Of a DNA stretch of 64,000 bases, positions 2,604 through 54,243 are shown one piece after another. Source of the DNA: Pelagibacteraceae bacterium AG-333-C14 (GTDB taxonomy: Bacteria; Pseudomonadota; Alphaproteobacteria; Pelagibacterales; AG-422-B15); NCBI GenBank assembly GCA_003282485.1, contig QBZD01000002.1, positions 90,852 to 154,851 on the forward strand, read 5' to 3'. The position numbers and the translations under genes were made by a program. Position 1 is the stretch's first letter, and the number at the start of each line of letters is the position of its first letter. The notes beneath the pieces were generated by a model. That model saw only the letters and a list, made by a program, of their open reading frames with translations. It had not been told where the DNA came from and did no database searches.

Positions 2604-3731
2604 ATGTCACTACAGGAATTAAATATTAGATTAAAAGATTATTTTATTGAGTTAGGATTTCAATATGTAGAGCTTCCTTTAGTTCATGATTCTGACATTT
2701 TTTATGAAACATCGGGAGAAGAAATAAGAAGTCAGATGTATTCTTTTATAGATGGTTCAGGCAAGGAAAAATGTCTGAGACCAGATATGACGATCCCTAC
2801 GTGTCAAAGTTTTATTAAAAGTGATGATAAAATAAATGAAGCTAATTTATGCTATAGTGGACCAGTATTTAGGTCAACCAATGGAATAAATGATACATCA
2901 ATTGAATTAAACCAATCAGGTGTTGAAATTATTTTTACAGAAAAAAAGCTAAAAACTATTTATGAAAAAGATATATATACGCTTAAAACGGCAGTCAAAA
3001 TTCTAGAAAAATTAAATATTAATGAATACCAAATTAAAATAGGCAGTCTAAACCTCTTTAATAGTTTTATAAGTTATTTAGATTTACCGATCAGGTGGAA
3101 ACAAAGAATTGTCAGGCATTTTTTTAGAAGAACATATTTTGATAGTTTGTTAAATCGATTAGGGCAAGGTGTCGGTTATGACATTTTGAAAAAGGATGAA
3201 ATTATCAATGAAAAACTAGGTTTGAATGCCAATTCAAATGGAAATTTGGCTGATCTAATTAATTCTAATAGCAATTCTGGTTCAGGCTCAAGGACAGTTG
3301 AAGAAATCGTCAAACGATTTCAGGAGAAAAGTGAAAACATCGTCTCTGAAAGCAATGGAAAACAAATTGTAAATCTGATTAAAAATTTTTTAGGTTTAAA
3401 CGCTTCTCTTGATACTTTTCCGAATATTTTAAGAGAGTTTGTAAGTGATCAAAAGCTTGATTTTTTTAAAAAAGAGATTGATGGCATTGAAGAATTCAAG
3501 AACGCCGTCTCATCTGAAATGGATATATCTAAAATTAATTTTAACAATGACTTTGGACATTCAATTGAATTTTATGATGGTGTTATGTTCGAAATCTATG
3601 ATCAATCAGGCAATTTAAAGATAATAACTGGTGGAAGATACGATAAGTTACTTAATATTTTAGGGTCCAGAAACAATCTGTCAGCTATAGGCTTTGCAAC
3701 AAATAATAATAATTTAAGTAAAATTATATAG
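2604..3731 (+). CDS. hisZ: ATP phosphoribosyltransferase regulatory subunit (HisRS paralog)
   Basis: 375 aa HisRS-like protein without an anticodon-binding domain (CLRPDMTIPTCQSF, GGRYDKLL). It sits between hisS and a short-form hisG, with spacers of 3 and 2 nt. Confidence 0.85.
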   Translation: MSLQELNIRLKDYFIELGFQYVELPLVHDSDIFYETSGEEIRSQMYSFIDGSGKEKCLRPDMTIPTCQSFIKSDDKINEANLCYSGPVFRSTNGINDTSIELNQSGVEIIFTEKKLKTIYEKDIYTLKTAVKILEKLNINEYQIKIGSLNLFNSFISYLDLPIRWKQRIVRHFFRRTYFDSLLNRLGQGVGYDILKKDEIINEKLGLNANSNGNLADLINSNSNSGSGSRTVEEIVKRFQEKSENIVSESNGKQIVNLIKNFLGLNASLDTFPNILREFVSDQKLDFFKKEIDGIEEFKNAVSSEMDISKINFNNDFGHSIEFYDGVMFEIYDQSGNLKIITGGRYDKLLNILGSRNNLSAIGFATNNNNLSKII

Positions 3732-3733
3732 TC

Positions 3734-4435
3734 ATGAAATTTGAAAATAAATTAAGGATAGGATTACCTAGTAAAGGCAGATTAAGAAAAGACATGGAGA
3801 AACTATTTCTAGATAAAAATATTACTTTTGAAAATCTTGTAAATGATAGAGATTATATTGGTACAATAAAGGGACTAAGAGATACAGTTCTATATTTTTT
3901 AAGTGCTAAAGAAATTACCAATAGACTTGATGAGGGATCAATTCATGCAGGTTTAACTGGTGATGACCTCGTACAAGAAAAAATTTTCAATTTTAATTCA
4001 AAAATAACAAAGGATCTGGAGTTAACTTTTGGAAAAGCGGATCTGGTTGTTGCTGTACCGGATATCTGGATTGATGTGATGACGATGGCTGATTTGGAAG
4101 AAGTGAGCAATAATCACAGAGATAAATATTCAAAAAGATTGCGTGTAGCAACTAAATATAAGAATTTAACAAATAATTTCTTTTCTAAATGTGGAGTTGT
4201 TGACTATAGAACTGTTGAAAGTGATGGCTCTACTGAAAGTGCGCCTTTCAATGGTTTTTCAGAAATCATCACTGATATAACATCAACAGGTGAAACACTT
4301 AGGGCTAACAATTTAAGAGTTCTTGATGATGGCATAATCCTGAAATCATCAGCAAATATCTTTTCTTCAAAAGTTGCAGAGTGGGATAACGAAATAGAAA
4401 GTAATTATAAAAACTTTATTAATAAGTTTGAATAA
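3734..4435 (+). CDS. hisG: ATP phosphoribosyltransferase, short (HisZ-dependent) form
   Basis: 233 aa. It reads LRIGLPSKGRL at the N-terminus and ITDITSTGETLRANNL (PRPP-binding signature). It lacks the long-form C-terminal regulatory domain. Confidence 0.9.
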   Translation: MKFENKLRIGLPSKGRLRKDMEKLFLDKNITFENLVNDRDYIGTIKGLRDTVLYFLSAKEITNRLDEGSIHAGLTGDDLVQEKIFNFNSKITKDLELTFGKADLVVAVPDIWIDVMTMADLEEVSNNHRDKYSKRLRVATKYKNLTNNFFSKCGVVDYRTVESDGSTESAPFNGFSEIITDITSTGETLRANNLRVLDDGIILKSSANIFSSKVAEWDNEIESNYKNFINKFE

Positions 4436-4464
4436 AAAAAACCCGGCTAGGCCGGGTTTTTTTT
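4434..4464. terminator. Bidirectional intrinsic terminator between convergent hisG and groEL
   Basis: aaaaaaaa-cccggc-tag-gccggg-tttttttt. This is a 6-7 bp GC stem (4441/4442-4447 with 4451-4456/4457) and a 3-nt loop, flanked by an A-tract and a T-tract, so it works in both orientations. Confidence 0.8.
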
Positions 4465-4484
4465 GAGTTTATCGTGAACGATTA

Positions 4485-6137
<1,653 letters not shown>

Positions 6138-6158
6138 TTATTCTCCTTGATTTAAGAT

Positions 6159-6473
6159 TTATTTTTTCTTTTTTGATTTTGATTTTTTTTCAATGACACC
6201 CATGATGTCAGACTCTTTCATGATACATAGCTCTTCCCCATCAACTTTGACTTCAGTGCCAGACCATTTTCCAAATAGGACAATATCTCCCGCTTTTAAA
6301 TCTAATGGTGTAACTTTTCCATCTTCAGATTTTGTTCCTGACCCAACAGCAACAATTTGTCCTTCTTGAGGTTTTTCTTGAGCTGTATCAGGAATGATAA
6401 TTCCTCCAGCAGTTTTTTCTTCAGTGTCTAATCTCCTTACGAGAACACGATCATGTAAAGGTCGAAAATCCAT
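6159..6473 (-). CDS. groES: Co-chaperonin GroES (Cpn10) with a Lys/Ser-rich C-terminal tail
   Basis: 104 aa. It reads [44 protein letters not shown]. It lies 24 nt upstream of groEL and has an AGGAGA SD. The last 9 residues are KKSKSKKKK. Confidence 0.97.
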
Positions 6474-6519
6474 TTTTAATCTCCTAAATATTTAATATCT
6501 TTTGCTTAATTACCTAGGC

Positions 6520-6548
6520 ATATAGTGATCCAGTGCGTATGTGTCAAG
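6520..6548 (-). promoter_or_regulatory. Candidate groESL promoter (heat-shock/sigma-70-like)
   Basis: The minus strand reads CTTGAC-acatacgcactggatca-CTATAT (also readable as TTGACA-N17-TATATG) about 45-75 nt upstream of the groES ATG. It resembles the alphaproteobacterial RpoH-type CTTG...CYTATNT pattern, but the spacing is not an exact match. No CIRCE inverted repeat is present. Confidence 0.4.
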
Positions 6549-6611
6549 AGGGGCTTCAAAAACGAATAATTATAAAAGATGACAAAAAATGCCTATTTTA
6601 CAACACTTTGA

Positions 6612-7382
6612 CTACTGTTCAGACTCTCCACCGTCTATAACTATATTTTGTCCAGTCATAAACGAGCCTGCTTCAGACGCAAGGTAGACGGCGGCTCCTG
6701 CGATTTCATCTGGCATGCCAATTCTTTTGAGCGCTGATTTCGCTGTTGTTACCCTCAAAATGTCTTCGTTCTCCCAAAGTGCACGTGCAAAATCAGTCTT
6801 GATTAGCCCCGGAGATATACAATTTGCTCTAATATTATTTCTACCATACTCCACAGAAATATTCCTTGCTAACTGAGAATCAGCGGCCTTGCTAATAGCA
6901 TAAGCGCCTAACATGCTGCTTCCGTGTAGACCTGCTATTGACGAAATTATAATGATAGAACCACTTTTTATTTTTACCATATCGGGCAATATTTCGTTAC
7001 ATAGCCAAAAGTTACTCTGTACATTTGATTTCATTATTTTTTCAAATGCTTCATCTGGTATGTTGTTAGATGGCCCAAAATATGGATTTACAGCCGCGTT
7101 GCATACTAAAGTTGTTATACTCCCACAAAACTCCTTTGATTTAACATATAAGTTTTTTAACTGTTCTTTGTCAGAAATATTACATGATATTGCTGTAGCG
7201 GTATCCTTACCAAACGTACTATTAATTTCTTCTGCAACGTTCTCACATGCATCAATTTTGCGACTTGTTATTATTACTTTGGCGCCATGCTCAGCCATTC
7301 GATATGCAATAGCCTTACCTATGCCACGTGAAGATCCGGTAATAATTGCATTTTTATCTTTTAAATTAAAAAGTGATGTCAT
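6612..7382 (-). CDS. Short-chain dehydrogenase/reductase (classical SDR)
   Basis: 256 aa. It has TGSSRGIGKAIA (TGxxxGIG), NAA, S...YxxxK (YAISKAA) and PG motifs. Confidence 0.85.
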   Translation of the reverse strand: MTSLFNLKDKNAIITGSSRGIGKAIAYRMAEHGAKVIITSRKIDACENVAEEINSTFGKDTATAISCNISDKEQLKNLYVKSKEFCGSITTLVCNAAVNPYFGPSNNIPDEAFEKIMKSNVQSNFWLCNEILPDMVKIKSGSIIIISSIAGLHGSSMLGAYAISKAADSQLARNISVEYGRNNIRANCISPGLIKTDFARALWENEDILRVTTAKSALKRIGMPDEIAGAAVYLASEAGSFMTGQNIVIDGGESEQ

Positions 7383-7442
7383 TTAATTACGAACTGATTT
7401 AAAAAAAAGATTATAAGTTAATAAAATAATTTCAATAAAAAT

Positions 7443-28115: not shown

Positions 28116-29846
28116 TTAAAATTCGCGTTCGTATAATTTCTTATAGACGCCATTGTTTGATAGTAACTTTTCATGAGTGCCACTTTCAACTATTTTTCCA
28201 TCATCTAGAACTATAATTTGATCAGCATTTATTATAGTACTTAGCCTATGGGCAATTACCAAAGTTGTTCTATCTTTCATCAGTTTCTTTATTGCTTCCT
28301 GAACAAGACTTTCTGATTCTGTATCTAAACTTGAAGTTGCCTCATCCAATAATAGTATTGGTGCATTTTTTAAAAAAGCTCTTGCAATTGAAACTCTTTG
28401 TTTTTGGCCGCCTGACAGACTGTACCCGTTTTCTCCAATTACTGTATCGTATCCATTTGGCAGCTGAGCAATAAATGAGTCAGCAGCAGCAGATTTTGCA
28501 GCACTAATAATTTCTTCTTCAGTAGAGTTAGGTCGGCTGTAGAGAATATTTTCTTTAATGGACATATCAAATAGAATTGGTTCTTGACTAACTAAAGCAA
28601 TCACTGCCCTGACTGAAGAAATTGTTAAATCTTTTATATTTTGTCCGTCAATTTTTAGTTCACCTGAGTCGGGATCATAAAATCTTGGTATAAGATTTAA
28701 AATTGATGATTTACCTGATCCACTTGGTCCTACTAAAGCAGTAGTTTTTCCATGAGGAATATTGAGATTGATTTTTTTTAGTGCTGAATTTGTCTGTCCT
28801 TCATAAGAGAGAGTTACCTCATGCAAATCAATATTAGTTTTATTTAACGATAGATCTATTGCATCTTTTTTTTCGTTAATTAAGCTTTCTTGATCTAACA
28901 GACTGAATACTCTTATAGCTGCTGCAAAACCTTCTTGAAGAGTTGTATTTATTGAAGCAAGTCTTTTCAGAGGTTGAAATGCCAACATCATTGCTCCAAG
29001 AAATGATACAAATTCGTTTAATGGCAGTTCTCCTTGAAGTCCCCTTAAACCTGCATAGTATAATGTTCCTGCTATACCAAATCCTGCAAGAAACTCAGCA
29101 AATGGTGACGCGGCCCCACGAGCATTTGCCCCTTTAAGAATTTTTTGAACCCTTCTCCAAACTGAATTACTAAGTTTTGTAATTTCTTTTTCTTCTTGTT
29201 GATAAGCTTTAACAATTCTTGTTCCATCTAAGTTTTCAGAAAGTATGGATGCTAGTACTCCCGTTTCTTCTTGTGTTTCTGTCGAGGCTTTTTTTACTCT
29301 TTTGCCCAATCTTCTCGTCAATACTCCGACTAAAGGGAAAGCTATGATTGCTATAGTTGCTAGTTGCCAGTCTTGGTAATACATAACACCAAGAAGGCAA
29401 ATGAGTGTCAGTAAATCCTTAACTCCATTAGCAAGACTGCTACTAACTGCATCTTGAAGTAAAGTAACGTCATATAGAAAATTAGAAATTATTTTTGCTG
29501 AGTGTATCTTATGAAGCCAAGATAGATCAGCGTTAATTATTTTTTTGAATAATTTTATTTGTGTGTCTGCGATAATATTTTGGGATACACCGTTTAAAAG
29601 TACAATTTGGATATAAGTTGCAACACTTTTAATGAGCAGTGTAAGAATTATCGCAATTGGTATTAACAACAACATTGATTCATCTTTATCAAGAAAAATT
29701 TTGTCAATTGCAGGGTCAAGCAGCCATGCAGTCGCACCTGTTGAAAGGGCTATTATTATCATAAAGAATAATGAGCTAGCTAATCTTGATGCATAAGGTC
29801 TTATACTATCTCTGAATAACCTTGCTAATATCTGCGATCCAGTCAT
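28116..29846 (-). CDS. msbA: ABC transporter, fused permease/ATPase, lipid A exporter MsbA-like
   Basis: 576 aa. Six TM segments are followed by an NBD with Walker A GPSGSGKS, signature LSGGQKQR and Walker B LLLDEATS. It sits in a lipid A/Kdo gene context. Confidence 0.8.
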   Translation of the reverse strand: MTGSQILARLFRDSIRPYASRLASSLFFMIIIALSTGATAWLLDPAIDKIFLDKDESMLLLIPIAIILTLLIKSVATYIQIVLLNGVSQNIIADTQIKLFKKIINADLSWLHKIHSAKIISNFLYDVTLLQDAVSSSLANGVKDLLTLICLLGVMYYQDWQLATIAIIAFPLVGVLTRRLGKRVKKASTETQEETGVLASILSENLDGTRIVKAYQQEEKEITKLSNSVWRRVQKILKGANARGAASPFAEFLAGFGIAGTLYYAGLRGLQGELPLNEFVSFLGAMMLAFQPLKRLASINTTLQEGFAAAIRVFSLLDQESLINEKKDAIDLSLNKTNIDLHEVTLSYEGQTNSALKKINLNIPHGKTTALVGPSGSGKSSILNLIPRFYDPDSGELKIDGQNIKDLTISSVRAVIALVSQEPILFDMSIKENILYSRPNSTEEEIISAAKSAAADSFIAQLPNGYDTVIGENGYSLSGGQKQRVSIARAFLKNAPILLLDEATSSLDTESESLVQEAIKKLMKDRTTLVIAHRLSTIINADQIIVLDDGKIVESGTHEKLLSNNGVYKKLYEREF

Positions 29847-37571: not shown

Positions 37572-38702
37572 ATGAACTTTGACTTTTCAGATGATCAAAA
37601 GCTTTTGCGCGATCAAGCTAGAAAGTTTTTACAAGATAAATGCGACCGTAAGTCTGTAAGAAGTATCCTAGAAGATAATCAGAAAAACTATAATGCTGAT
37701 CTTTGGTCTCAAATTTCTGAATTAGGTTGGACTGGTACTGCAATACCTGAAGAATATGGAGGACTTGGTCTAGGTATGTTGGAATTGTGTGTAATAGCTG
37801 AAGAGCTAGGCAGAGCTCTTGCGCCCACACCATTTTCTTCTTCGATATATATCTTTGCTGAATTTTTAAAATCGTATGGTACGGATGAACAAAAGAAAAA
37901 ATATTTACCACACATTGCATCTGGTGAAAAAATTGGGACATTTGCTTTATCAGAAACTAATGGGAAACCAAAACCCAATAATATAAAGACACAGCATGCT
38001 TCAGGTAAATTAAATGGATCTAAAAATCCTGTTTCTGATGGAGAGTCAGCAGACTATATCATTGTTGCAGCAAATTCTGACAGTAACTCAAATTATAATT
38101 CTCTCTCTCTTTTTATTATTGATAGAAATGACACAGGCGTAAATATTTCAAGCTTAGATACTATCGATCCCACGAGACCAGCTTGCACAGTGGATTTGAA
38201 AAATGTTGCAAGTGAAAGGCTCGGCGATGAAGGAAGTGGATGGGAGATGATTGATAATATTTTTAATAGAGCAGCTGTTTTATTTTCTTTCGAGCAAGTG
38301 GGTGGGGCACAAGTCTCACTTGATGAGGCAAAAAAATATTCACTTGAGCGATTCGCTTTTGGTAAGCAGATAGGTGCGTTTCAAGCTTTAAAGCATAAGA
38401 TGGCGGATATGTATGTCAAAATTGAATTAGCAAGATCTAATGCTTATTATGGTGCCTGGGCACTAAGCACAGATTCAAATGAATTGCCTATTGCAGCTGC
38501 TGGCGCAAGGGTTAGTGCCTCGGAAGCTTACAATTACGCGTCGCAGGAAAATATTCAAATACATGGAGGTGTTGGTTTTACATGGGAATATGACTGTCAC
38601 TTGTTTTATCGAAGATCGAAACTACTTTCTTTAAATATTGGTAGTATCCGTCAGTGGAAAGAAAATTTAATTTCAAATCTTGAAAAAAGGAATATAGTTT
38701 AG
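37572..38702 (+). CDS. Acyl-CoA dehydrogenase family protein, degenerate (beta-like) member of an adjacent pair
   Basis: 376 aa with the ACAD fold (QIHGGVGFTWEYDCHLFYRRSK). Signature 1 is degenerate (ALSETNGKPKPN). There is no Glu at either the MCAD-type (C-terminal) or IVD-type (FNRAAV) catalytic position. Confidence 0.8.
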   Translation: MNFDFSDDQKLLRDQARKFLQDKCDRKSVRSILEDNQKNYNADLWSQISELGWTGTAIPEEYGGLGLGMLELCVIAEELGRALAPTPFSSSIYIFAEFLKSYGTDEQKKKYLPHIASGEKIGTFALSETNGKPKPNNIKTQHASGKLNGSKNPVSDGESADYIIVAANSDSNSNYNSLSLFIIDRNDTGVNISSLDTIDPTRPACTVDLKNVASERLGDEGSGWEMIDNIFNRAAVLFSFEQVGGAQVSLDEAKKYSLERFAFGKQIGAFQALKHKMADMYVKIELARSNAYYGAWALSTDSNELPIAAAGARVSASEAYNYASQENIQIHGGVGFTWEYDCHLFYRRSKLLSLNIGSIRQWKENLISNLEKRNIV

Positions 38703-38704
38703 TA

Positions 38705-39988
38705 ATGGATTTTAACGACACACCTCAAGAAGCTGAATTTAGAAAAAAAGTAAGATCTTTTCTAGAAGCAAATGCAGAAAAAAGATCTACTCTAGCTGCA
38801 AAGCCAAAGGGTGACTCAGGATCTTCTATTTCAAGCGCTGGAGCACCAGAAACAGTAAAAGGCGAAGATGCTGCAAAAGTAGCGCTTGACAATGCTAAAG
38901 AATGGCAAAGAAAAAAAGCTGATGCTGGATTTGCTGCTATTCTATGGCCAAAGGAATTCGGAGGTTACGGAGGAACGCCTATAGAGCAAGTTATATACGC
39001 TCAAGAAGAACACGACTATTTTGTTCACTCAGGATATTTTGAAATTGGAATAGGCATGCTCGGACCAACCATGATGGCCTGGGGTAAGGATGAGGACAAA
39101 AAAAGATTCCTTCCAAAAATGATTACAGGTGAAGAAATTTGGTGCCAATTATTTTCTGAACCCTCAGCAGGATCAGATTTAGCTGGTATAAGAATGAAGG
39201 CAGAAAAAGATGGTGATGAATGGGTATTAAATGGTCAAAAGGTTTGGACTTCAGGAGCTCATTTTGCCGATTACGGAATGATTGTAGCACGATCTGACCC
39301 CACTGCCTTAAAACATAAGGGACTTACTTATTTTTACGTTGATATGAAAACACCAGGAATTGAAGCTAAGCCTATTAAACAAATTTCTGGTTCAGCTAAT
39401 TTTAATGAAGTTTTCTTTAATGATGTTCGTATACCTGACAGTCAAAGAATTGGCGCAGAGGGTGACGGGTGGAAAGTATCACTTACTACTTTAATGAATG
39501 AAAGATTAGCGGTAGGGGATCCTCCAGGCTTAGACTTTGATCAAATTTTTGAAGCCTCTAAAGAAATTGAAGTTGAGGATGGCCTTGCAGTAAAAAATAG
39601 TGAAGTAAGACAAAAAATGGCAGACTGGTATATCCAATCGCGCGGTTTGCAATATACTAAATACAGAAGCATGACTGCTTTATCAAAAGGCCAAACGCCA
39701 GGACCAGAGCTCTCAATAAGTAAACTGGTCACAGCGTCGAAAATGCAAGATGTATCATCTTACGCACTGGATTTAATGGACATGTCAGGCATGGTTCACC
39801 AAGATCAAAATCCAATTCTTAAAAACTTATTCCAAAACGGTTATTTTTTCTCTGCTGCCATGAGAATTGCTGGTGGTACTGACGAAGTTTTAAGAAATAT
39901 TATTGCGGAGCGAGTCCTAGGGCTACCACAAGATGAAAGGTCAGATAAAAAACTGCCTTTCAATGAGTTACCGTCTGGTAAAAACTAA
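38705..39988 (+). CDS. Acyl-CoA dehydrogenase family protein, alpha-like member of the pair
   Basis: 427 aa. Signature 1 is intact (FSEPSAGSDLAG). There is a Glu at the IVD/LCAD-type position (LMNERLAVG), and IAGGTDEV stands where MCAD has YEGT. It starts 2 nt after the previous ACAD. Confidence 0.85.
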   Translation: MDFNDTPQEAEFRKKVRSFLEANAEKRSTLAAKPKGDSGSSISSAGAPETVKGEDAAKVALDNAKEWQRKKADAGFAAILWPKEFGGYGGTPIEQVIYAQEEHDYFVHSGYFEIGIGMLGPTMMAWGKDEDKKRFLPKMITGEEIWCQLFSEPSAGSDLAGIRMKAEKDGDEWVLNGQKVWTSGAHFADYGMIVARSDPTALKHKGLTYFYVDMKTPGIEAKPIKQISGSANFNEVFFNDVRIPDSQRIGAEGDGWKVSLTTLMNERLAVGDPPGLDFDQIFEASKEIEVEDGLAVKNSEVRQKMADWYIQSRGLQYTKYRSMTALSKGQTPGPELSISKLVTASKMQDVSSYALDLMDMSGMVHQDQNPILKNLFQNGYFFSAAMRIAGGTDEVLRNIIAERVLGLPQDERSDKKLPFNELPSGKN

Positions 39989-42353: not shown

Positions 42354-42394
42354 TTTAAGTGTTGCGTATTTTTAAAGAATATAACATATTTATC

Positions 42395-42548
42395 GCGTTG
42401 GTTCACGTAAAGTGAATAACAGGGAATAAGGTTTAAATCCTTAGCTGTACCCGCAACTGTAACTCATGAGTTTGAATGCAGATGCCACTGATTTTATTGG
42501 GAAGGCGTGTTCAAGTTTAGACGGAGAAGTCAGGAGACCTACCAACAA
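42395..42548 (+). promoter_or_regulatory. Cobalamin (B12) riboswitch aptamer
   Basis: gttggttcac...AGGGAAtaaGGTttaAATCCttaGCtGtaCCCGCAACTGTAA...GCCACTG...GGGAAGGC...AGTCAGGAGACCTACCaac. All conserved cobalamin-riboswitch core blocks are present, including the B12 box. P1 closes by gttggt (42397-42402) pairing with accaac (42541-42546). It lies immediately upstream of a TonB-dependent receptor. Confidence 0.9.
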
Positions 42549-42676
42549 AGACGCTGTCATCCTCAGGTAATCGGGATAATTATTTGGACTTACAACTTTA
42601 GAGTAGTGGTGACTTAAATTAAACCGCTACGATTCATTATTATCGTTGCAAATTTTGATTGAAAGGATGACTTCGC

Positions 42677-44917
42677 ATGTCTAAATTTTTTTTAATACTA
42701 TTTTTTTATTCTTTAACTTTATCACATTCATTTGCCGATGAGCAAACAATCTGGATTACTCCCTCCGAAACTGACTATTCAAGATTATCAACTGGTTTAG
42801 CAGGGTCGAATATTACTATTATAAGTGAAGACGAAATAAAAAATGACAAAAATTCAAGTTTGCCCGAGATAATTGCTACTCATTCAGGAGTTCAATTAAG
42901 AAATCTATTTTCAAACGTGCAGTCTACAGGATCAACTTTAGATCTTAGAGGATTTGGTGAGTCTGCAAAAAATAATTCAGTTATTTTACTAAATGGACGT
43001 CGATTGAATGATATTGACATGGGAGGAGTGAACTTTTCAATGGTACCAGTTAACTCTATCAAAAGGATTGAAATTATTCGTGGTGGTTCAGCATCAACTC
43101 TATATGGAGATGGAGCTGTTGGCGGAGCAGTCAATATTGTAACTAAAAATGTTACGGACACACCAGGATTATTAAATGTAAGTACCCGATCTCATAATAC
43201 TTACAAAGAAGACCTTACCGTACCCATAAACATAAATAATAAATCAGGTTTTTTATTATCGGCCTCGCTGAACGAAAGTGACACTTATCGAGAACGTTCA
43301 GATTTTAGAGGTGAGGCTTATTTGATTAGATATAATTATAATGATGAAAATTATAATTTTTATATAGACGTAAATGATAATTCATACCGACAATTTTTAC
43401 CTGGTAGCAGATATGCGCCAAGTTTAAATGTTGCAGATACTTCGGACACTGTTAATTGCAATCTTTTATCAGATAGTAGAACTGCGTATCAAAAGGGCAC
43501 ATACTATTTACTTCCAGGTGAATGTTTAATCAGGGAACCCGACTCATCAAAGTTTGATACAATAGCAATTTCTTCAGGTATTGATCTAAAAATTGATAGT
43601 TCAACAAATCTTTATTTGAACTTCTCTAATAGAGATAAAGAACAAAAGGCTTTTACGGCAGGAGGAGCATCTACGATAGGAAACCCTACTTCAGCTGATA
43701 CCTTCAATTTTTATGAATTAGAGACTGATTATGTATCTCTTAGAACAGATCATAGGACATTTTTGGGAAATAATCTTACAACGTTGAGTGTGGGCGTTGA
43801 CCTACAAGAAACAGATTATTCAAAAAAATCAAGTCAAAGTAGATCTGATCAATACGGCGGTTTCGTTTACGCTTCGCAAGAAAGTAGGGCAATATATTCA
43901 CAAAATTCTATAAATTTAATTGATGGAAAATCAGTCTTATCTTTTGGTGCTCGTTTGGAAAATGCAGATTATAAAGTTCAAGAGTCATTTGACACAACTG
44001 TAAGTAAGTTTGCATTTAGTACGGCTCGTGATCCATATCAAACTAAAATGAATAACAGTGCTGTGAATATTGGACTTGAAAATATTTTAGATAAACAAAA
44101 AACGATATTTATTAAATATGCTGAAGCTTTTCGAACACCTGATCTCGATGCACGTAACAGTACCTGTGCGAATGCTTACTCAGCATGTTCCAATACCGGA
44201 ACTCACTTTTTTCTTAGAGATCAAACTTCAGATGAAATTGAGTTAGGATTAAGATTTAATAATGGAAAATTTAGTGCTGTTTCGAGTATCTATGAAATGA
44301 ATACATTGAATGAAATAAGATATGTTCCTTACGCAAATAATACAAATCTCGATCCAATCAAACGAAAAGGACTTAATATTGATTTTAAGTATGATCTTAA
44401 TGAGAAAATGAAAATGAATGGATCTTTTTCATATATAGATGCTCATTTCACCTCTGGGTCTTTGTCAAGAGGTATGTTTTCAGGAACATACGCATCAAAT
44501 ACAGCCACTGCAACGGAGAGAATGGATAGTAACAGAAATAACAGCGATGGAACTTATAATATTGCCGGTTTAAAAGTTCCATTAGTTGCAGAATATACTT
44601 ATGATATTGAATTAAATTATTTAATAGCAGATAAAACCAATTTTAAACTGAATATGTCTTTTGTAGATGATATGTTCGTATCTAATGATCAGGAAAATAT
44701 TGAACCTACAATTCCTAATTACTATCTTTTCGATGTGAGCTTAAATTCTGAAAATGAATTTGGTAAATGGTCAATTGGAGTAGATAATATGTTTAATACA
44801 AGTTATTATACTTTTGCTGTTGCAAGTAGTACTCATGCCGACACTTCTTATGGAAGACAAAATATGTATCCGTTGGAGAGAAGGAGTATTTTCTTTGATT
44901 ATGCATATGAATTTTAA
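42677..44917 (+). CDS. btuB: TonB-dependent outer-membrane receptor, BtuB-like (cobalamin riboswitch-controlled)
   Basis: 746 aa. Signal peptide ...SHSFA|DEQ, TonB-box-like TIWITPSE, plug domain (DLRGFG...ILLNGRRLND...IEIIRGGSASTLYGDGAVGGAVNIVTK), a long beta-barrel and a C-terminal aromatic ...YAYEF. The B12 assignment rests on the riboswitch. Confidence 0.8.
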   Translation: MSKFFLILFFYSLTLSHSFADEQTIWITPSETDYSRLSTGLAGSNITIISEDEIKNDKNSSLPEIIATHSGVQLRNLFSNVQSTGSTLDLRGFGESAKNNSVILLNGRRLNDIDMGGVNFSMVPVNSIKRIEIIRGGSASTLYGDGAVGGAVNIVTKNVTDTPGLLNVSTRSHNTYKEDLTVPININNKSGFLLSASLNESDTYRERSDFRGEAYLIRYNYNDENYNFYIDVNDNSYRQFLPGSRYAPSLNVADTSDTVNCNLLSDSRTAYQKGTYYLLPGECLIREPDSSKFDTIAISSGIDLKIDSSTNLYLNFSNRDKEQKAFTAGGASTIGNPTSADTFNFYELETDYVSLRTDHRTFLGNNLTTLSVGVDLQETDYSKKSSQSRSDQYGGFVYASQESRAIYSQNSINLIDGKSVLSFGARLENADYKVQESFDTTVSKFAFSTARDPYQTKMNNSAVNIGLENILDKQKTIFIKYAEAFRTPDLDARNSTCANAYSACSNTGTHFFLRDQTSDEIELGLRFNNGKFSAVSSIYEMNTLNEIRYVPYANNTNLDPIKRKGLNIDFKYDLNEKMKMNGSFSYIDAHFTSGSLSRGMFSGTYASNTATATERMDSNRNNSDGTYNIAGLKVPLVAEYTYDIELNYLIADKTNFKLNMSFVDDMFVSNDQENIEPTIPNYYLFDVSLNSENEFGKWSIGVDNMFNTSYYTFAVASSTHADTSYGRQNMYPLERRSIFFDYAYEF

Positions 44918-44974
44918 AATTTTTTTTAATAAAATTATATTGATATTAGTAAGTTGATAGGTATCTTTGGTAAT

Positions 44975-45493
44975 ATGGAGTCTAGAAAAAGTCATTATTT
45001 AAGTATTTTAGGATTAATTGTCCTTCTAGCTTCTGCTAGACTATTGCCTCATCCACCCAACTTTACTCCAATTCTTGGTATGGCTGTGTTTTCAGGGGCA
45101 ATTATTAACCAAAGATTATTAGCTTATTTAACTCCTTTAGCTGCTATGTTGTTAAGTGATTTATATTTAGGTTTTCATGCTAGTATGCCCATTATTTATT
45201 TCACTTTAGCAATCTGCGTTTTGATTGGCACGTTCATTTCTAAAAGAGTGTCTATTTTGAATTCTTTTTTAAGCATTAATTTAGGAGTATTAGTATTTTT
45301 TTTAATTACAAACTTCGCAGTTTGGTATGGATCAGGAATGTATGAATTTAATATATCAGGTTTAATGACTTGCTATTTTATGGCAATACCCTTTGTACAA
45401 AATACACTTATTTCAGGTCTTATATATGGAATGGGTGCATTTTTAATTTACGACATTATTAATAAACGTATAATTTTTGGCAATAATGCTTAA
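44975..45493 (+). CDS. Small 5-6 TM membrane protein, DUF6580 / ECF-S-component-like putative transporter
   Basis: 172 aa from the ATG at 44975 (the track uses a TTG at 44954). The RLLPHPPNFTPILGMAVFSGA motif matches my memory of the DUF6580 'putative transport protein' family. It lies 36-57 nt downstream of btuB on the same strand. Confidence 0.6.
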   Translation: MESRKSHYLSILGLIVLLASARLLPHPPNFTPILGMAVFSGAIINQRLLAYLTPLAAMLLSDLYLGFHASMPIIYFTLAICVLIGTFISKRVSILNSFLSINLGVLVFFLITNFAVWYGSGMYEFNISGLMTCYFMAIPFVQNTLISGLIYGMGAFLIYDIINKRIIFGNNA

Positions 45494-45560: not shown

Positions 45561-46763
45561 ATGGATACAGCATTTTCAAGTGAAGATTTAAAATTTCAAT
45601 CAGACGTCAGAGAATTTATTTCAAACAATTATCCAAAAGAGCTTAAAGACTCAATTGGTTCAAAAAGAAAAACAGGAAAAGAGTTATCTCGCGATGACCT
45701 AATGTCTTGGCATAAAATTTTAGGTAAACACAATGGCTGGTCAGCTCCTGGGTGGCCTAAACAGTATGGGGGAGCAGAATTTTCTCCAACACAAAAATAT
45801 ATATTTGAGCAAGAGTGTGCTCGAGCTGAATGTCAATACATAATGCCTTTTGGTGTTAATATGGTAGGCCCTGTGATCTATACATTTGGCAATGATGAAC
45901 AAAAAGCAAAACATCTTCCTGGAATTTTAAGTGGCGATGTATTTTGGTGCCAGGGATATTCAGAGCCAGGGTCGGGTTCTGATTTAGCTTCTCTTAAAAC
46001 AAGTGCAGTCAAAGAGGGTGATCATTATATTGTTAATGGACAAAAAACTTGGACTACTCTTGCTCAGTATGCAGATTGGATTTTTTGCCTAGTTAGAACA
46101 AACCCAGAAGCAGCAAAACCTCAGCAAGGAATTTCATTTCTTTTGATTGATATGAAAACTCCAGGCATTACTGTTCGCCCAATAAAGCTTATGGACGGAT
46201 CTCACGAAGTTAACGAAACTTGGTTTGATAATGTAAAGGTACCAGTTGAGAATCTCATTGGACAAGAAAATATGGGCTGGACTTATGCAAAATTTTTATT
46301 AGCTCATGAAAGATCTGGTATTGCTGGTGTCGCTAGGTCTAAAAAAGCTTTAGAAAGAATCAAGCAAATTGCTAGTGCTGAGATGTCTTATGGTGAGCCA
46401 TTAATACAAGATCCAGCATTTAAATCTAAAATAGCAAATGCTGAACTTGAATTAAATTCCCTAGAATATACTGAACTTAGAACATTGGCTAAGGACTCAG
46501 CAGGAAAAGGTCCTGGTCCAGAGTCTTCGCTTTTGAAAATTAAGGGCACTGATATTCAACAGATGGTCACCGAACTTGCGATGGAAGCCGTTGGATATTA
46601 TGCAAACCCGCATTTGGGCACTACATTAAGTAATGAATATGTAGGACCAGATTATGCAACTAATTTATCAGGGTCATACTTTAATTTCAGAAAAGCATCT
46701 ATTTATGGTGGCTCAAACGAAATTCAGAGAAACATAATCGCTAAGATGGTCCTAGGATTATAA
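45561..46763 (+). CDS. Acyl-CoA dehydrogenase family protein, alpha-like member of second pair
   Basis: 400 aa. Signature 1 is intact (GYSEPGSGSDLAS). There is an IVD-type Glu (LLAHERSGIAG), and IYGGSNEIQRNIIA stands where MCAD has YEGT. Confidence 0.85.
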   Translation: MDTAFSSEDLKFQSDVREFISNNYPKELKDSIGSKRKTGKELSRDDLMSWHKILGKHNGWSAPGWPKQYGGAEFSPTQKYIFEQECARAECQYIMPFGVNMVGPVIYTFGNDEQKAKHLPGILSGDVFWCQGYSEPGSGSDLASLKTSAVKEGDHYIVNGQKTWTTLAQYADWIFCLVRTNPEAAKPQQGISFLLIDMKTPGITVRPIKLMDGSHEVNETWFDNVKVPVENLIGQENMGWTYAKFLLAHERSGIAGVARSKKALERIKQIASAEMSYGEPLIQDPAFKSKIANAELELNSLEYTELRTLAKDSAGKGPGPESSLLKIKGTDIQQMVTELAMEAVGYYANPHLGTTLSNEYVGPDYATNLSGSYFNFRKASIYGGSNEIQRNIIAKMVLGL

Positions 46764-46804
46764 AATTTTTGACATTTTAGTCTGCAATATATAGGACTAC
46801 TCAC

Positions 46805-47983
46805 ATGAATTTTGATTACACAGAAGAACAAACTCTTCTTGAAAACATGGTTACTTCATTTGTAAGAGATGACTATGACTGGGATACAAGGTGCTCAATT
46901 GTTAAAACTGAGGAGGGATGGAAAGAAGAGAACTGGAAAAAGTTCGCTGAACTTGGTCTTTTAGGAGTTCCTTTCGATGAGGATCATGGTGGACTAGGTG
47001 GTGAAGCGACTGACATAATGATTGTGATGGAGCAATTTGGAAAAGGCCTTGTTGTAGAGCCATACATGCCATCAATAATTCTAGCTGGAGGTCTCATCTC
47101 TAAACTGGGATCAGCAGATCAGAAAAATTCAATTATTCCAGAAATTATTTCAGGTGATAGACGTTATGTTTTTGCATACGCAGAACCTCAAAGTAGGTTT
47201 GATTTATTTGATGTAAAATGTTCGGCAACTCTTGATGGAGACAACTATACTATTAATGGATTTAAGTCAGTAGTCTTTGGTGCTGGTATGGCAACTCACT
47301 TAATTATTTCAGCGAGGACTGAAGGAGATCAAAGATCAAAGTCAGGAATTACGCTATTTCTGGTTGATATAAAATCTGATGGTATCACTTTACAGAATTA
47401 TCCGACAATTGATGAGTATAGAGCATCAGAAGTTGTTATTGAAAATTTAACTGTGTCAAAAGAAAATATTTTAGGCGAGTTACACAACTCTTATGAAGCA
47501 ATTGAAGAACAAGTAGATTTATCTACAATTGCAATATGTTCAGAAGCTGTTGGCATTTTGCAAGTACTTAAAGACTCAACTAACGATTATTGTAAAAATA
47601 GAAAACAATTTGGGCAACCCATCAGCGCTAATCAAGCTATACAGCACCGCCTTGTTGACATGATGATTGAATATGAGCAAGCAAAATCTATACTTTATAT
47701 GGCTATAACGGCTGACCTTAGCAATCCAGATGAAAGAAGAAAGGCCGCATCAGCTGCAAAGGCTCGTATTGGAAAAGCTATTAAATTTGTAGGTGAAAAT
47801 GCTATTCAACTACACGGTGGCATGGGTGTTGTTGACGAGTATATGATCAGTCACTTTTTTAAAAGAGCAACAATGATTGGTATTCTTTTCGGCAATGTTG
47901 ATTTTCATATGAAGAGATACACTGATTTGACCCAATCTAATATTCAGTCAATAAACGAAGAAGACGGGATTAATCTTTCTTAG
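46805..47983 (+). CDS. Acyl-CoA dehydrogenase family protein, degenerate (beta-like) member of second pair
   Basis: 392 aa with the ACAD fold (QLHGGMGVVDEYMISHFFKRA). Signature 1 is degenerate (AYAEPQSRFDLFD). The C-terminal ILFGNVDFH replaces YEGTxEIQ, and no ER-type Glu is present. Confidence 0.8.
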   Translation: MNFDYTEEQTLLENMVTSFVRDDYDWDTRCSIVKTEEGWKEENWKKFAELGLLGVPFDEDHGGLGGEATDIMIVMEQFGKGLVVEPYMPSIILAGGLISKLGSADQKNSIIPEIISGDRRYVFAYAEPQSRFDLFDVKCSATLDGDNYTINGFKSVVFGAGMATHLIISARTEGDQRSKSGITLFLVDIKSDGITLQNYPTIDEYRASEVVIENLTVSKENILGELHNSYEAIEEQVDLSTIAICSEAVGILQVLKDSTNDYCKNRKQFGQPISANQAIQHRLVDMMIEYEQAKSILYMAITADLSNPDERRKAASAAKARIGKAIKFVGENAIQLHGGMGVVDEYMISHFFKRATMIGILFGNVDFHMKRYTDLTQSNIQSINEEDGINLS

Positions 47984-47995
47984 ATAAATAGTTAT

Positions 47996-48898
47996 CTATT
48001 CAGATAGCTTTTTAAATATATGAGCAGTGTGTTCCGCTCCACTTCTAAGAGCTTTGCCGTTTGTCATATCTGAAGCCTCTGACCATTTTTCAGCAAGCAT
48101 ATCAGCATTTAGATCATCTCCTTTAAGAGCAATTCCCTCAGAATGAACTATTTCAGCCATTGCAAACACACCTGCTCCGGCAGAAATCATTACGCCATCT
48201 GGCGCATTTTCAGATGCCATGAATATTACAGCAGGAGAAACAGACTCTGGCTTGAGGCTATCAAATACTGCGTCAGGCATTCCAAGATTTTCTGTCATTC
48301 TTGTAGCTGCGACAGGTACGAGTGAATTTACTTTGATATTATTCTTTTGTCCTTCAATTCTCAGAGTATTCATTAATCCAACAACCCCCATTTTAGCTGA
48401 TCCGTAATTAGACTGTCCAAAATTACCAAATATTCCTGACGAAGAAGATGTCATAACTATTCGGCCATATTTCTGTTCAACCATAATAGGCCATACAGCT
48501 TTAGTACAATAGACAGATCCCATCATATGTACATCAACTACAAATTCAAAATCATCTAAGGTTACTTTTGCAAAAGATTTATCTCTCAAGACACCAGCAT
48601 TATTTACAAGAATATCAATCCTTCCATATGCTGCCATTGCGTCATCTACCAGTTTTTTTACACCAGCTTTATCAGTTACACTTGATCCATTTGAAATTGC
48701 ATCGCCACCCATAGCTTTAATTTCTTCAACAACCTTATCAGCTGCTTCACTTGATCCACCTGATCCATCCACAGAGCCACCTAGATCATTAACAATAACT
48801 TTAGCACCTCTCTCAGCAAATTGAAGCGCATGGCATCTTCCTAATCCACCCCCAGCACCTGTTACTATTGCTACTTTATCTTTAAAACTTATTGTCAT
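47996..48898 (-). CDS. SDR, MFE-2/HSD17B4 N-terminal-domain-like (R)-3-hydroxyacyl-CoA dehydrogenase
   Basis: 300 aa. FKDKVAIVTGAGGGLGRCHALQFAERGAKVIVNDLGGSVDGSGGSS..AADKVVEEI closely follows the remembered MFE-2 dehydrogenase domain. The YGSAK catalytic motif is present. Confidence 0.8.
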   Translation of the reverse strand: MTISFKDKVAIVTGAGGGLGRCHALQFAERGAKVIVNDLGGSVDGSGGSSEAADKVVEEIKAMGGDAISNGSSVTDKAGVKKLVDDAMAAYGRIDILVNNAGVLRDKSFAKVTLDDFEFVVDVHMMGSVYCTKAVWPIMVEQKYGRIVMTSSSSGIFGNFGQSNYGSAKMGVVGLMNTLRIEGQKNNIKVNSLVPVAATRMTENLGMPDAVFDSLKPESVSPAVIFMASENAPDGVMISAGAGVFAMAEIVHSEGIALKGDDLNADMLAEKWSEASDMTNGKALRSGAEHTAHIFKKLSE

Positions 48899-53559: not shown

Positions 53560-54243
53560 ATGACAGTAACTCTAAAAACAGAAGGTGATGTATCAATCAT
53601 TAATATGGATGATGGTAAGGTGAATGTTTTTTCACCAGAGATGATTCAGAATTTTGAAAAAATCATGGACCAAATTCCAACTAATAAGGGTTCAGTTTTA
53701 ATTACAGGAAGACCTGGTATGTTTTCAGCTGGATTTGATTTAAAGGTTATGATGTCGAGTCCTGAAAATGCCGCAGCTATGGTTAAGTCTGGTTTCTTAA
53801 TGCTGAAAAGAGTTTTCTCATTTCCTCGTCCCGTAGTTGCTGCATGTAGTGGACACGCCATTGCTCTTGGGGCTTTTCTTTTATGCAGCAGTGATTACCG
53901 TGTTGGCTGTGAAGGTGACTTTAAGGTTGGGGCAAATGAATTAAGAAACAATATGATTGTACCAACACCTATTTTAGAAATTGCAAAATTTAAATTAACA
54001 AAATCACACAAGCAAAGGGCACTTCTCAACGCTGAAATGTATTCAATAAAAGATTCTATCGAACCAGGATATATTGATGAAGTAGTAAGTCCCGAAAGTT
54101 TTTATGATGTCGCACTAACAAAAGCAAAAGATCTAGCGACTTTGGCACACCCTCAATATGATCAAACCAAGAAACTCGATCAGGAAGATGTGTTGCCTAA
54201 AATTAGCAAGGGCATAGAACAAATCACCTCACCCGTTGGGTAA
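53560..54243 (+). CDS. Enoyl-CoA hydratase/isomerase (crotonase) family protein
   Basis: 227 aa. It reads GKVNVFS, FSAGFDLK and PVVAACSGHAIALGAFLL (oxyanion-hole helices). Confidence 0.8.
   Translation: MTVTLKTEGDVSIINMDDGKVNVFSPEMIQNFEKIMDQIPTNKGSVLITGRPGMFSAGFDLKVMMSSPENAAAMVKSGFLMLKRVFSFPRPVVAACSGHAIALGAFLLCSSDYRVGCEGDFKVGANELRNNMIVPTPILEIAKFKLTKSHKQRALLNAEMYSIKDSIEPGYIDEVVSPESFYDVALTKAKDLATLAHPQYDQTKKLDQEDVLPKISKGIEQITSPVG

Follow-up and report, generated by a model that had tools for sequence, protein, structure and literature searches.

Known routes of B12 uptake and a candidate locus in SAR11

Once vitamin B12 has passed an outer-membrane receptor, the inner-membrane step can be carried out by BtuCDF, a type II ATP-binding cassette (ABC) importer that is driven by ATP and composed of a 20-helix BtuC dimer, an ATPase and a periplasmic binding protein. 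Many Gram-negative auxotrophs possess BtuB but no BtuCDF, and for most B12-requiring prokaryotes the inner-membrane transporter is still to be identified (PMC6072759). Two other proteins that handle B12 have the fold of the S-components of energy-coupling factor (ECF) transporters. One is BtuM, known from Thiobacillus denitrificans, in which an invariant cysteine of loop 3 (Cys80) ligates the cobalt and which, like solitary BioY, transports without an ECF module (PMC6072759), and the other is CbrT of Lactobacillus delbrueckii (6FNP), a member of PF12822 that needs the EcfAA'T module and ATP (PMC5997447). Here, we analyzed a 64-kb stretch of the genome of the SAR11 member Pelagibacteraceae bacterium AG-333-C14 (the window, to which coordinates refer unless another locus is named) by searches of Rfam, Pfam, NCBIfam, PDB and GTDB. 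On its plus strand, a cobalamin riboswitch, the gene of a TonB-dependent receptor and a gene of the family DUF6580 (PF20221) follow one another in this order. We consider it rather likely that the three form a two-gene corrinoid uptake cassette, in which the DUF6580 protein acts as a solitary S-component-like corrinoid permease.

The DUF6580 family is large, with 4,462 cluster representatives at 50% identity (E value of ≤1e-3) and at least 582 matches in GTDB species genomes. Its members are publicly annotated as "hypothetical protein" or as "fumarate reductase subunit D" (JGI/IMG, e.g., P0122 and P0303), the latter apparently an error that was made for a small hydrophobic protein and then passed on. 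The preliminary description of this DNA, which had been made from the letters alone, already regarded the function of the family as not established. In agreement, our literature search, which included the combination of SAR11 and btuB, returned no mention of DUF6580 or PF20221 and no functional study, and none of the papers that it returned on BtuM together with cobalamin appeared, by title and abstract, to concern the family.

The DUF6580 protein and its predicted fold

The DUF6580 gene ends at position 45493 and can start either with a TTG at 44954 (179 amino acids) or with an ATG at 44975 (172 amino acids), of which the latter agrees with the length of most homologues (171 to 173 amino acids). 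The product matched PF20221 with 151.2 bits against a cut-off of 27 (E value of 3.8e-44, profile positions 5 to 158 of 162). No other family was found in the Pfam scan at an E value of ≤1, so no S-component model such as PF12822 recognized it, and there was no NCBIfam model for the protein. The gene is under purifying selection, with ratios of nonsynonymous to synonymous substitution rates (dN/dS) of 0.12 to 0.20 between the closer SAR11 pairs, and is therefore functional.

An AlphaFold2 model built from 133 diverse homologues had a predicted local distance difference test (pLDDT) value of 95.6 and a predicted template modeling (pTM) score of 0.89. It consists of six helices, at residues 2 to 21, 33 to 43, 47 to 65, 71 to 88, 94 to 120 and 127 to 171. 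When this model was compared to the PDB with Foldseek, the top 11 chains were all ECF S-components, with probabilities of up to 0.99 and template modeling (TM) scores of 0.45 to 0.61, and everything below them was noise at a TM score of about 0.2. Among these matches were FolT (4z7f, probability of 0.99 and TM scores of 0.57/0.59), PanT (6zg3), ThiT (3rlb and 4tkr, TM score of up to 0.61) and RibU 5kc4, together with 4huq_S, 5edl and 4rfs_S. Much of what had been read from the letters was confirmed: the open reading frame (ORF) of 172 to 179 codons lying 36 to 57 nt behind the receptor gene on the same strand, the N-terminal motif RLLPHPPNFTPILGMAVFSGA and the peptides LAICVLIG and MTCYFMA, the membership in DUF6580, the five to six transmembrane segments (six in the model) and the resemblance to S-components.

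In the alignment of the 133 homologues, R22 and D62 were invariant, and P25, H26, N29, P32, G66, Y75, F108, F109, N113, W117, Y123, G129, L130, P139 and F140 were conserved in 90% or more of the sequences. R22, H26, N29, D62, G66, Y75, N113, W117 and Y123 were also identical across all alignable homologues of the 80 loci described below. Position 68, in loop 3, was His in 73% and Tyr in 20% of the 133 homologues, with Phe also seen. We infer an N-in/C-in topology, which fits the positive-inside rule, with Lys and Arg at the N terminus, in the turns between helices 2 and 3 and between helices 4 and 5, and at the C terminus. With this topology, the conserved polar residues would face the periplasm from three places: loop 1, the end of helix 3 with loop 3, and the outer ends of helices 4 to 6. 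The putative pocket would then fall in the region where S-components bind their substrates.

Comparison with BtuM, CbrT, BioY and BtuCDF

The preliminary description had compared the protein to the BtuM type, in which a cysteine thiolate is the cobalt ligand, and had pointed to the cysteines in LAICVLIG and in MTCYFMA. Both proteins are small, with a six-helix S-component fold, and occur in Gram-negative bacteria near an outer-membrane B12 receptor, often with an adenosyltransferase and, as it appears for DUF6580, without an ECF module. They differ in range, as BtuM is found mostly in Beta- and Gammaproteobacteria and DUF6580 in many phyla, including SAR11 and the candidate phyla radiation (CPR). 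Neither phmmer with the DUF6580 protein nor hmmsearch with the 133-sequence profile, both run against all PDB chains at an E value of ≤10, returned BtuM (6FFV), which was also absent from the top 50 Foldseek matches. Loop 3 of the DUF6580 protein (residues 66 to 70, GFHAS) has no cysteine. Membership in the BtuM family was rejected on the basis of these PDB sequence searches and of the cysteine position.

The two proposed cysteines fared no better. Cys81 (in LAICVLIG) was rejected as a cobalt ligand, as it is not conserved. Cys133 (in MTCYFMA, helix 6) is a cysteine in 84% of the 133 homologues, but it is replaced by Ala in loci L064 and L074 and by Ser in L068, all three of which have a clear B12 context. 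Since a loop-3 cysteine is absent, Cys81 is not conserved and Cys133 can be replaced, a thiolate mechanism of the BtuM type is unlikely, and we rejected it. If any side chain ligates cobalt, H26 would be the better candidate because it is identical in the alignable homologues of all 80 loci. One might even speculate that H28, D67, C80 and Y85 of the BtuM pocket are paralleled by H26, D62, H68 and Y75 in DUF6580.

These conserved residues could also be read in another way. In BtuM, a protein with the S-component fold carries out a chemical modification of B12. The DUF6580 protein has conserved His, Cys, Tyr and Trp residues on its predicted periplasmic side, and gene context cannot tell transport from processing. 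The protein might then be a corrinoid-handling one (a chaperone facing the periplasm, a decyanase or reductase, or a relay from the receptor to a transporter), with transport left to another protein. We find this very unlikely, given that neither the SAR11 cassette nor most of the other loci include a second candidate for the inner-membrane transporter, that every characterized protein with this fold is a transporter component and that the cysteine is dispensable in homologues with a clear B12 context.

The nearest solved sequence relative turned out to be CbrT rather than BtuM. The only PDB match of the 133-homologue profile was 6fnp_A (E value of 0.13), a chain labelled "Membrane protein" in the ECF-CbrT entry, which we take to be CbrT from its length of 182 residues; a fragment of it matches PF12822 (ECF_trnsprt) and PF07155. 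An hhalign comparison of DUF6580 with CbrT homologues gave a probability of 86.4% and an E value of 4.6e-6 over 111 columns, which cover the N-terminal two thirds only, with CbrT represented by 23 mostly truncated or frameshifted sequences that had been found with an 89-residue fragment. Common to both families are the motifs R..P.PN[FV][TQ]P in loop 1 and S[DN]..LGF in helix 3, and the presumed substrate is cobalamin or cobinamide in either case. In contrast to CbrT, the DUF6580 protein matches PF20221 only, shows no recurrent ECF module at its loci and is mostly encoded downstream of a TonB receptor gene in Gram-negative bacteria. From these sequence comparisons, DUF6580 is best regarded as a family of its own in the S-component superfamily, with the B12-specific CbrT as its nearest solved relative.

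Solitary BioY sets a precedent for an S-component fold that mediates uptake alone (cited in PMC6072759), although its substrate (biotin) and Pfam family are different and the solitary state is the exception there, whereas it seems to be the norm in DUF6580. The DUF6580 protein would fill the same slot as BtuCDF, after the receptor, and in some loci a BtuF-like protein is encoded beside it, but it has none of the ABC architecture. Known kinds thus include BtuM, a solitary S-component-like B12 transporter whose gene lies beside that of a receptor, and CbrT, an S-component specific for B12, and DUF6580 is neither of them. It appears to be set apart by the lack of the BtuM ligand chemistry, by its failure to match the Pfam S-component models, by a wider distribution and by the apparent lack of an ECF module.

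Riboswitch, receptor and spacer

The aptamer (42382 to 42560, plus strand) matched RF00174 over the full model (positions 1 to 189) with 103.8 bits (gathering score, 31.5; E value, 6.8e-25) and was the only Rfam match in the 64 kb. From its end to the ATG of the receptor gene (42677) there are 117 nt. In this expression platform (42552 to 42676), the anti-Shine-Dalgarno sequence GUCAUCCU (approximately 42555 to 42562), just 3' of the aptamer, pairs with the Shine-Dalgarno region AGGAUGAC of the receptor gene (approximately 42664 to 42671) in both the minimum free energy and the centroid folds, a predicted pairing in a leader whose fold z-score is only -1.41. As the leader has no intrinsic terminator, the most likely target of the riboswitch is the start of translation of the receptor gene, through sequestration of its Shine-Dalgarno sequence. 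The riboswitch of Escherichia coli btuB likewise exerts its control on translation initiation.

The receptor (42677 to 44917, plus strand) has 746 amino acids, a signal peptide and both Plug (72.9 bits) and TonB_dep_Rec_b-barrel (69.2 bits) domains. It had been called btuB in the preliminary description, a name that it deserves by context only. Its best NCBIfam match was TonB-hemin (84.9 bits, below the cut-off). The match to TonB-B12 (TIGR01779) reached 76.2 bits over residues 23 to 205 only, against a cut-off of 599.7, and that to PRK10641 reached 50.1 bits, against 836. PDB sequence matches were confined to the plug domain, to Cir and FepA, and E. coli BtuB was absent from them. By the cut-offs of these hidden Markov models the receptor is not a BtuB orthologue; what it has of the BtuB type is the plug and barrel architecture under a cobalamin riboswitch, and we presume that it is a corrinoid receptor. 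For receptors paired with DUF6580 in other lineages, TonB-B12 was the best NCBIfam match in five of six, always below its cut-off, and SAR11 seems to carry its own divergent receptor subfamily.

The spacer between the two genes (44918 to 44974, plus strand) measures 57 nt, or 36 nt with the TTG start. As had been stated before, neither a terminator nor a promoter was apparent: no terminator-like hairpin or site lies between the genes, and promoter-like matches around the spacer stayed at chance level (16, versus 17.6 expected from shuffled sequence). The receptor and DUF6580 genes (the latter at 44975 to 45493, plus strand) are thus probably cotranscribed. That both stand under the same B12 riboswitch, as had been proposed, is an inference; with a switch that seems translational, control of the second gene would have to be indirect, through coupling, polarity or mRNA decay. 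A 74-amino-acid antisense ORF (44771 to 44995, minus strand) overlaps the last part of the receptor gene and the first part of the DUF6580 gene; in DNA this rich in AT, it has most likely arisen by chance.

Conservation of the locus in SAR11

The 12.5 kb around the locus were collinear with those of 28 species-level Pelagibacteraceae/Pelagibacterales genomes, some of them from single cells, at 71 to 93% nucleotide identity. Their common gene order is TauE, phosphomannomutase (minus strand), riboswitch, receptor, DUF6580, two acyl-CoA dehydrogenases, etc. The same riboswitch was found in the same place in 27 of the 28 loci, and the remaining one (L018) has only 147 nt of upstream sequence. A field study of SAR11 had posed the regulation of btuB by B12 in the clade as an open question (PMC9296465), to which this conserved riboswitch gives an answer at the sequence level.

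Riboswitches and B12 genes near DUF6580 in other genomes

We extended the comparison to 80 loci with 6-kb flanks from GTDB contigs, with one genome per species. They were chosen with 34 sequences that share PHPPNFTP, so that the sample is biased toward members with that motif. Riboswitches were sought by Rfam and by a two-box pattern; all 19 of the pattern matches that were retested were confirmed, and Rfam added 7. A cobalamin-class riboswitch (RF00174 or RF01689) was found within 6 kb in 51 of the 80 loci (64%), 27 of the 28 from SAR11 and 24 of the 52 others. These loci belong to about ten phyla or classes, among them Alpha- and Gammaproteobacteria, Bacteroidota, Ignavibacteria, Acidobacteriota, Planctomycetota, Verrucomicrobiota and two CPR lineages. 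A genome has only a few cobalamin riboswitches, and the chance of meeting one in a 12-kb interval is about 1 to 2%. With so few riboswitches per genome, the rate of 64% and the spread over some ten distant lineages put the association far beyond chance or inherited synteny. The link of such proteins to B12 riboswitches and receptor genes, to which the preliminary description had pointed, was therefore also seen in the wider family, with TonB receptors and B12 genes nearby.

The riboswitch lies upstream of DUF6580 on the same strand in 38 loci (the 27 from SAR11 and L035, L039, L050, L064, L068, L070, L072, L074, L076, L077 and L078). In 12 loci of Sphingomonadales and other Alphaproteobacteria it is directly upstream on the opposite strand, where it precedes a divergent receptor gene, an arrangement that speaks against a shared riboswitch. 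It is immediately downstream in one locus, L041 (Candidatus Roizmanbacteria, 5567 to 7425), where the riboswitch (6089 to 6253, 48.6 bits) is followed by a 379-amino-acid protein with no Pfam match. The order riboswitch-receptor-DUF6580 occurs in SAR11, in one gammaproteobacterium, in one acidobacterium and in the alphaproteobacterial single-cell genome AAA240-E13, whose riboswitch is of the adenosylcobalamin (AdoCbl)-II class. Bacteroidota (L072) show riboswitch-DUF6580-receptor, a Gemmataceae member (L035) shows riboswitch-DUF6580-BtuF-like-DUF71, and L064 and L074 show riboswitch-receptor-PduO followed further on by DUF6580. A TonB receptor is adjacent in 27 of the 28 SAR11 loci and lies within two genes in 20 of the 52 others. 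In two Sphingomicrobium loci, L056 (5763 to 6620) and L066 (6001 to 6860), a second, shorter DUF6580-like ORF of about 106 amino acids comes right after the full-length one and may have arisen by tandem duplication, fragmentation or a frameshift.

Within two genes of DUF6580 in 44 diverse loci there were 138 other neighbors. They included DUF71/Diphthami_syn_2 (5 neighbors), PduO-type adenosyltransferase (3), Peripla_BP_2, i.e., BtuF-like (2), the B12-binding domain (2) and methylmalonyl-CoA mutase (1). PduO adjoins DUF6580 in L047, L064, L068 and L074, and a DUF71 subfamily has been predicted to act in B12 salvage (PMC3541065). The arrangement in L068 (Candidatus Levybacteria, 2663 to 7017) is a ribonucleotide reductase (barrel and TSCPD domains, class II/NrdJ-like), an AdoCbl-II riboswitch, DUF4430, DUF6580 and PduO, which mirrors nrdJ-cbrS-cbrT-pduO of L. 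delbrueckii, where cbrT takes the position of DUF6580. DUF6580 and DUF71 stand in one operon in Gemmataceae L035 (2030 to 4608), Verrucomicrobia L078 (574 to 6200) and the unclassified metagenome-assembled genome L055 (74 to 1871). The first two operons add a BtuF-like periplasmic binding protein, without BtuC or BtuD, and a protein of 157 to 327 amino acids with no Pfam match (cluster 49) is common to L055 and L078. To have a binding protein serve an S-component-like permease would be unusual.

DUF71, as a predicted salvage or remodeling enzyme, would also suit a DUF6580 protein that carries a smaller B12-related molecule, such as dimethylbenzimidazole (DMB) or alpha-ribazole (compare the S-component CblT) or cobalt (compare the CbiM type). 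The fold is common to S-components for many small substrates, and it is established that B12 riboswitches also control transporters of cobalt and precursors (metagenome survey in PMC2211319). We nevertheless regard such a substrate as quite unlikely. The most frequent partner, the TonB receptor, serves molecules too big for porins, which DMB, alpha-ribazole and Co2+ are not, and complete cobamides are what the PduO, NrdJ-like and BtuF-like partners act on or require. SAR11 has been reported to lack the biosynthetic pathway and to be auxotrophic for B12 (PMC9296465), so that B12-controlled import of cobalt or of a lower ligand would serve no purpose, and CbrT, the sole solved relative by sequence, is specific for cobalamin and cobinamide.

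A solitary corrinoid permease would also fit the lack of recurrent transporter partners. Neither ABC_tran nor CbiQ/EcfT recurred among the 138 neighbors, although Group II S-components are normally encoded apart from the ECF module, so that its absence nearby is no proof. No btuD or ECF ATPase lies near DUF6580 in the window, in line with the earlier statement that btuC, btuD and btuF are missing from the vicinity. The sole ABC ATPase signature of the window (28116 to 29846, minus strand) belongs to a 576-amino-acid fused ABC_membrane and ABC_tran half-transporter of the exporter type, 15 kb away, which by Pfam is not SbmA/BacA-like and hence no obvious alternative B12 importer. Among the window ORFs that were scanned (not every ORF was annotated), there were no TonB, ExbB, ExbD, BtuCDF, adenosyltransferase or B12-dependent enzymes.

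A dependence of the DUF6580 protein on a partner encoded elsewhere, be it an ECF module, another ATPase or a periplasmic binding protein, seems unlikely. ECF modules are predominantly Gram-positive, and the S-component fold is capable of transport on its own, as in BtuM and some BioY proteins (PMC6072759); the neighborhoods offer no recurrent ATPase or EcfT, and the exporter-type ATPase is the only one in the window. What speaks for a partner is that CbrT, the nearest solved relative, works only with an ECF module (PMC5997447), that L035 (Planctomycetota) and L078 (Verrucomicrobiota) have operons with a BtuF-like protein but without BtuC or BtuD, and that CPR bacteria could have ECF modules elsewhere.

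The family is also found outside B12 contexts. Eight Leptospira loci (L036, L038, L045, L049, L051, L052, L054 and L069) share the order MazG pyrophosphohydrolase, DUF6580, ATP-grasp, 7TM-transglutaminase, Zn-protease and CLC channel, with no riboswitch within 6 kb and with pocket residues identical to those of the riboswitch-linked members. GNAT acetyltransferases are frequent neighbors as well, and acyl-CoA dehydrogenases, common beside DUF6580 in Sphingomonadales loci, account for 6 of the 138. Together with the 29 loci that have no riboswitch within 6 kb, this could mean that DUF6580 has a general or other membrane function and that its position in SAR11 says nothing about the substrate. 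Such a reading appears highly improbable to us, because it leaves 64% of loci with a riboswitch against a chance rate of 1 to 2%, because the link is seen again in about ten distant lineages, in which gene order varies and riboswitches of two classes occur, and because the pocket residues are the same in members with and without a riboswitch, which points to a single class of substrate.

Proposed mechanism and points against it

In the corrinoid uptake cassette that we favor, the riboswitch would expose the ribosome-binding site of the receptor gene at low intracellular adenosylcobalamin, and a single mRNA would yield both the receptor and the DUF6580 protein. The TonB-dependent receptor would deliver the corrinoid to the periplasm, where the DUF6580 protein would bind it in a periplasm-facing pocket formed by loop 1 (R22, H26 and N29), the end of helix 3 and loop 3 (D62 and H68) and the outer ends of helices 4 to 6 (Y75, N113, W117, Y123 and C133). 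It would then carry the corrinoid across the inner membrane alone, without an ECF ATPase module. The likely motion would be toppling, i.e., a rigid-body rotation, as has been proposed for S-components and for BtuM. Net uptake may follow the concentration gradient and be sustained by capture of the corrinoid in the cytoplasm, where it would be adenosylated or bound by enzymes, so that the DUF6580 protein and BtuM would share solitary toppling, facilitated diffusion and cytoplasmic trapping.

Several observations weigh against this proposal. The substrate is deduced from gene context only, and the pocket was located from the topology. The Foldseek E values are weak (0.15 or higher), even if the ranking is clean, and the hhalign probability for CbrT is 86%, not above 95%, with a truncated CbrT alignment and with membrane proteins being prone to inflated scores of this kind. 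The receptor of the window fails every curated BtuB threshold. A riboswitch that seems to act translationally on the ribosome-binding site of the receptor gene would require coupling or polarity to reach the second gene, and in about 12 sphingomonadal and other alphaproteobacterial loci DUF6580 is divergent from the riboswitch. Finally, 29 of the 80 loci have no riboswitch within 6 kb, and the conserved neighborhood of the eight Leptospira loci is a non-B12 one; DUF6580 may not be monofunctional, or its regulation may vary by lineage. Taken with these points, the stand-alone cobalamin permease of the preliminary description came through all the computational checks that had been proposed with it, as a candidate and without its BtuM-type cysteine chemistry.

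Genes flanking the cassette

On either side of the B12 cassette there are two acyl-CoA dehydrogenase paralogues, four in all (37572 to 39988 and 45561 to 47983). A short-chain dehydrogenase and an enoyl-CoA hydratase also flank it (the flanking group also includes 47996 to 48898 and 53560 to 54243). A link of these flanks to B12-dependent propionate or branched-chain catabolism is possible.

Implications for B12 acquisition

From its modeled fold and its association with B12 riboswitches and B12 genes in many bacterial phyla, DUF6580 is a strong candidate for the missing inner-membrane B12 route. For the family as a whole, it is quite possible, without our leaning either way, that DUF6580 is a large unrecognized family of ECF-independent corrinoid permeases. 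It would have arisen from CbrT-like S-components and would work without a cysteine ligand, perhaps through the invariant histidine of loop 1, and it would represent the missing transporter of many Gram-negative bacteria with a B12 receptor but without BtuCDF and, with the divergent TonB receptor, a minimal two-gene route in SAR11. The hypothesis is directly testable with the existing E. coli complementation assay, which uses a btuC, btuF and metE mutant (PMC6072759). If it is true, the S-component fold would have been put to use for B12 a third time independently, here with neither an ATPase nor a cysteine ligand. It would also supply a missing piece when B12 auxotrophy and cross-feeding are reconstructed from the metabolism of bacteria in the oceans, in soils and among the candidate phyla, and it would mean that abundant SAR11 lineages both import and sense B12.

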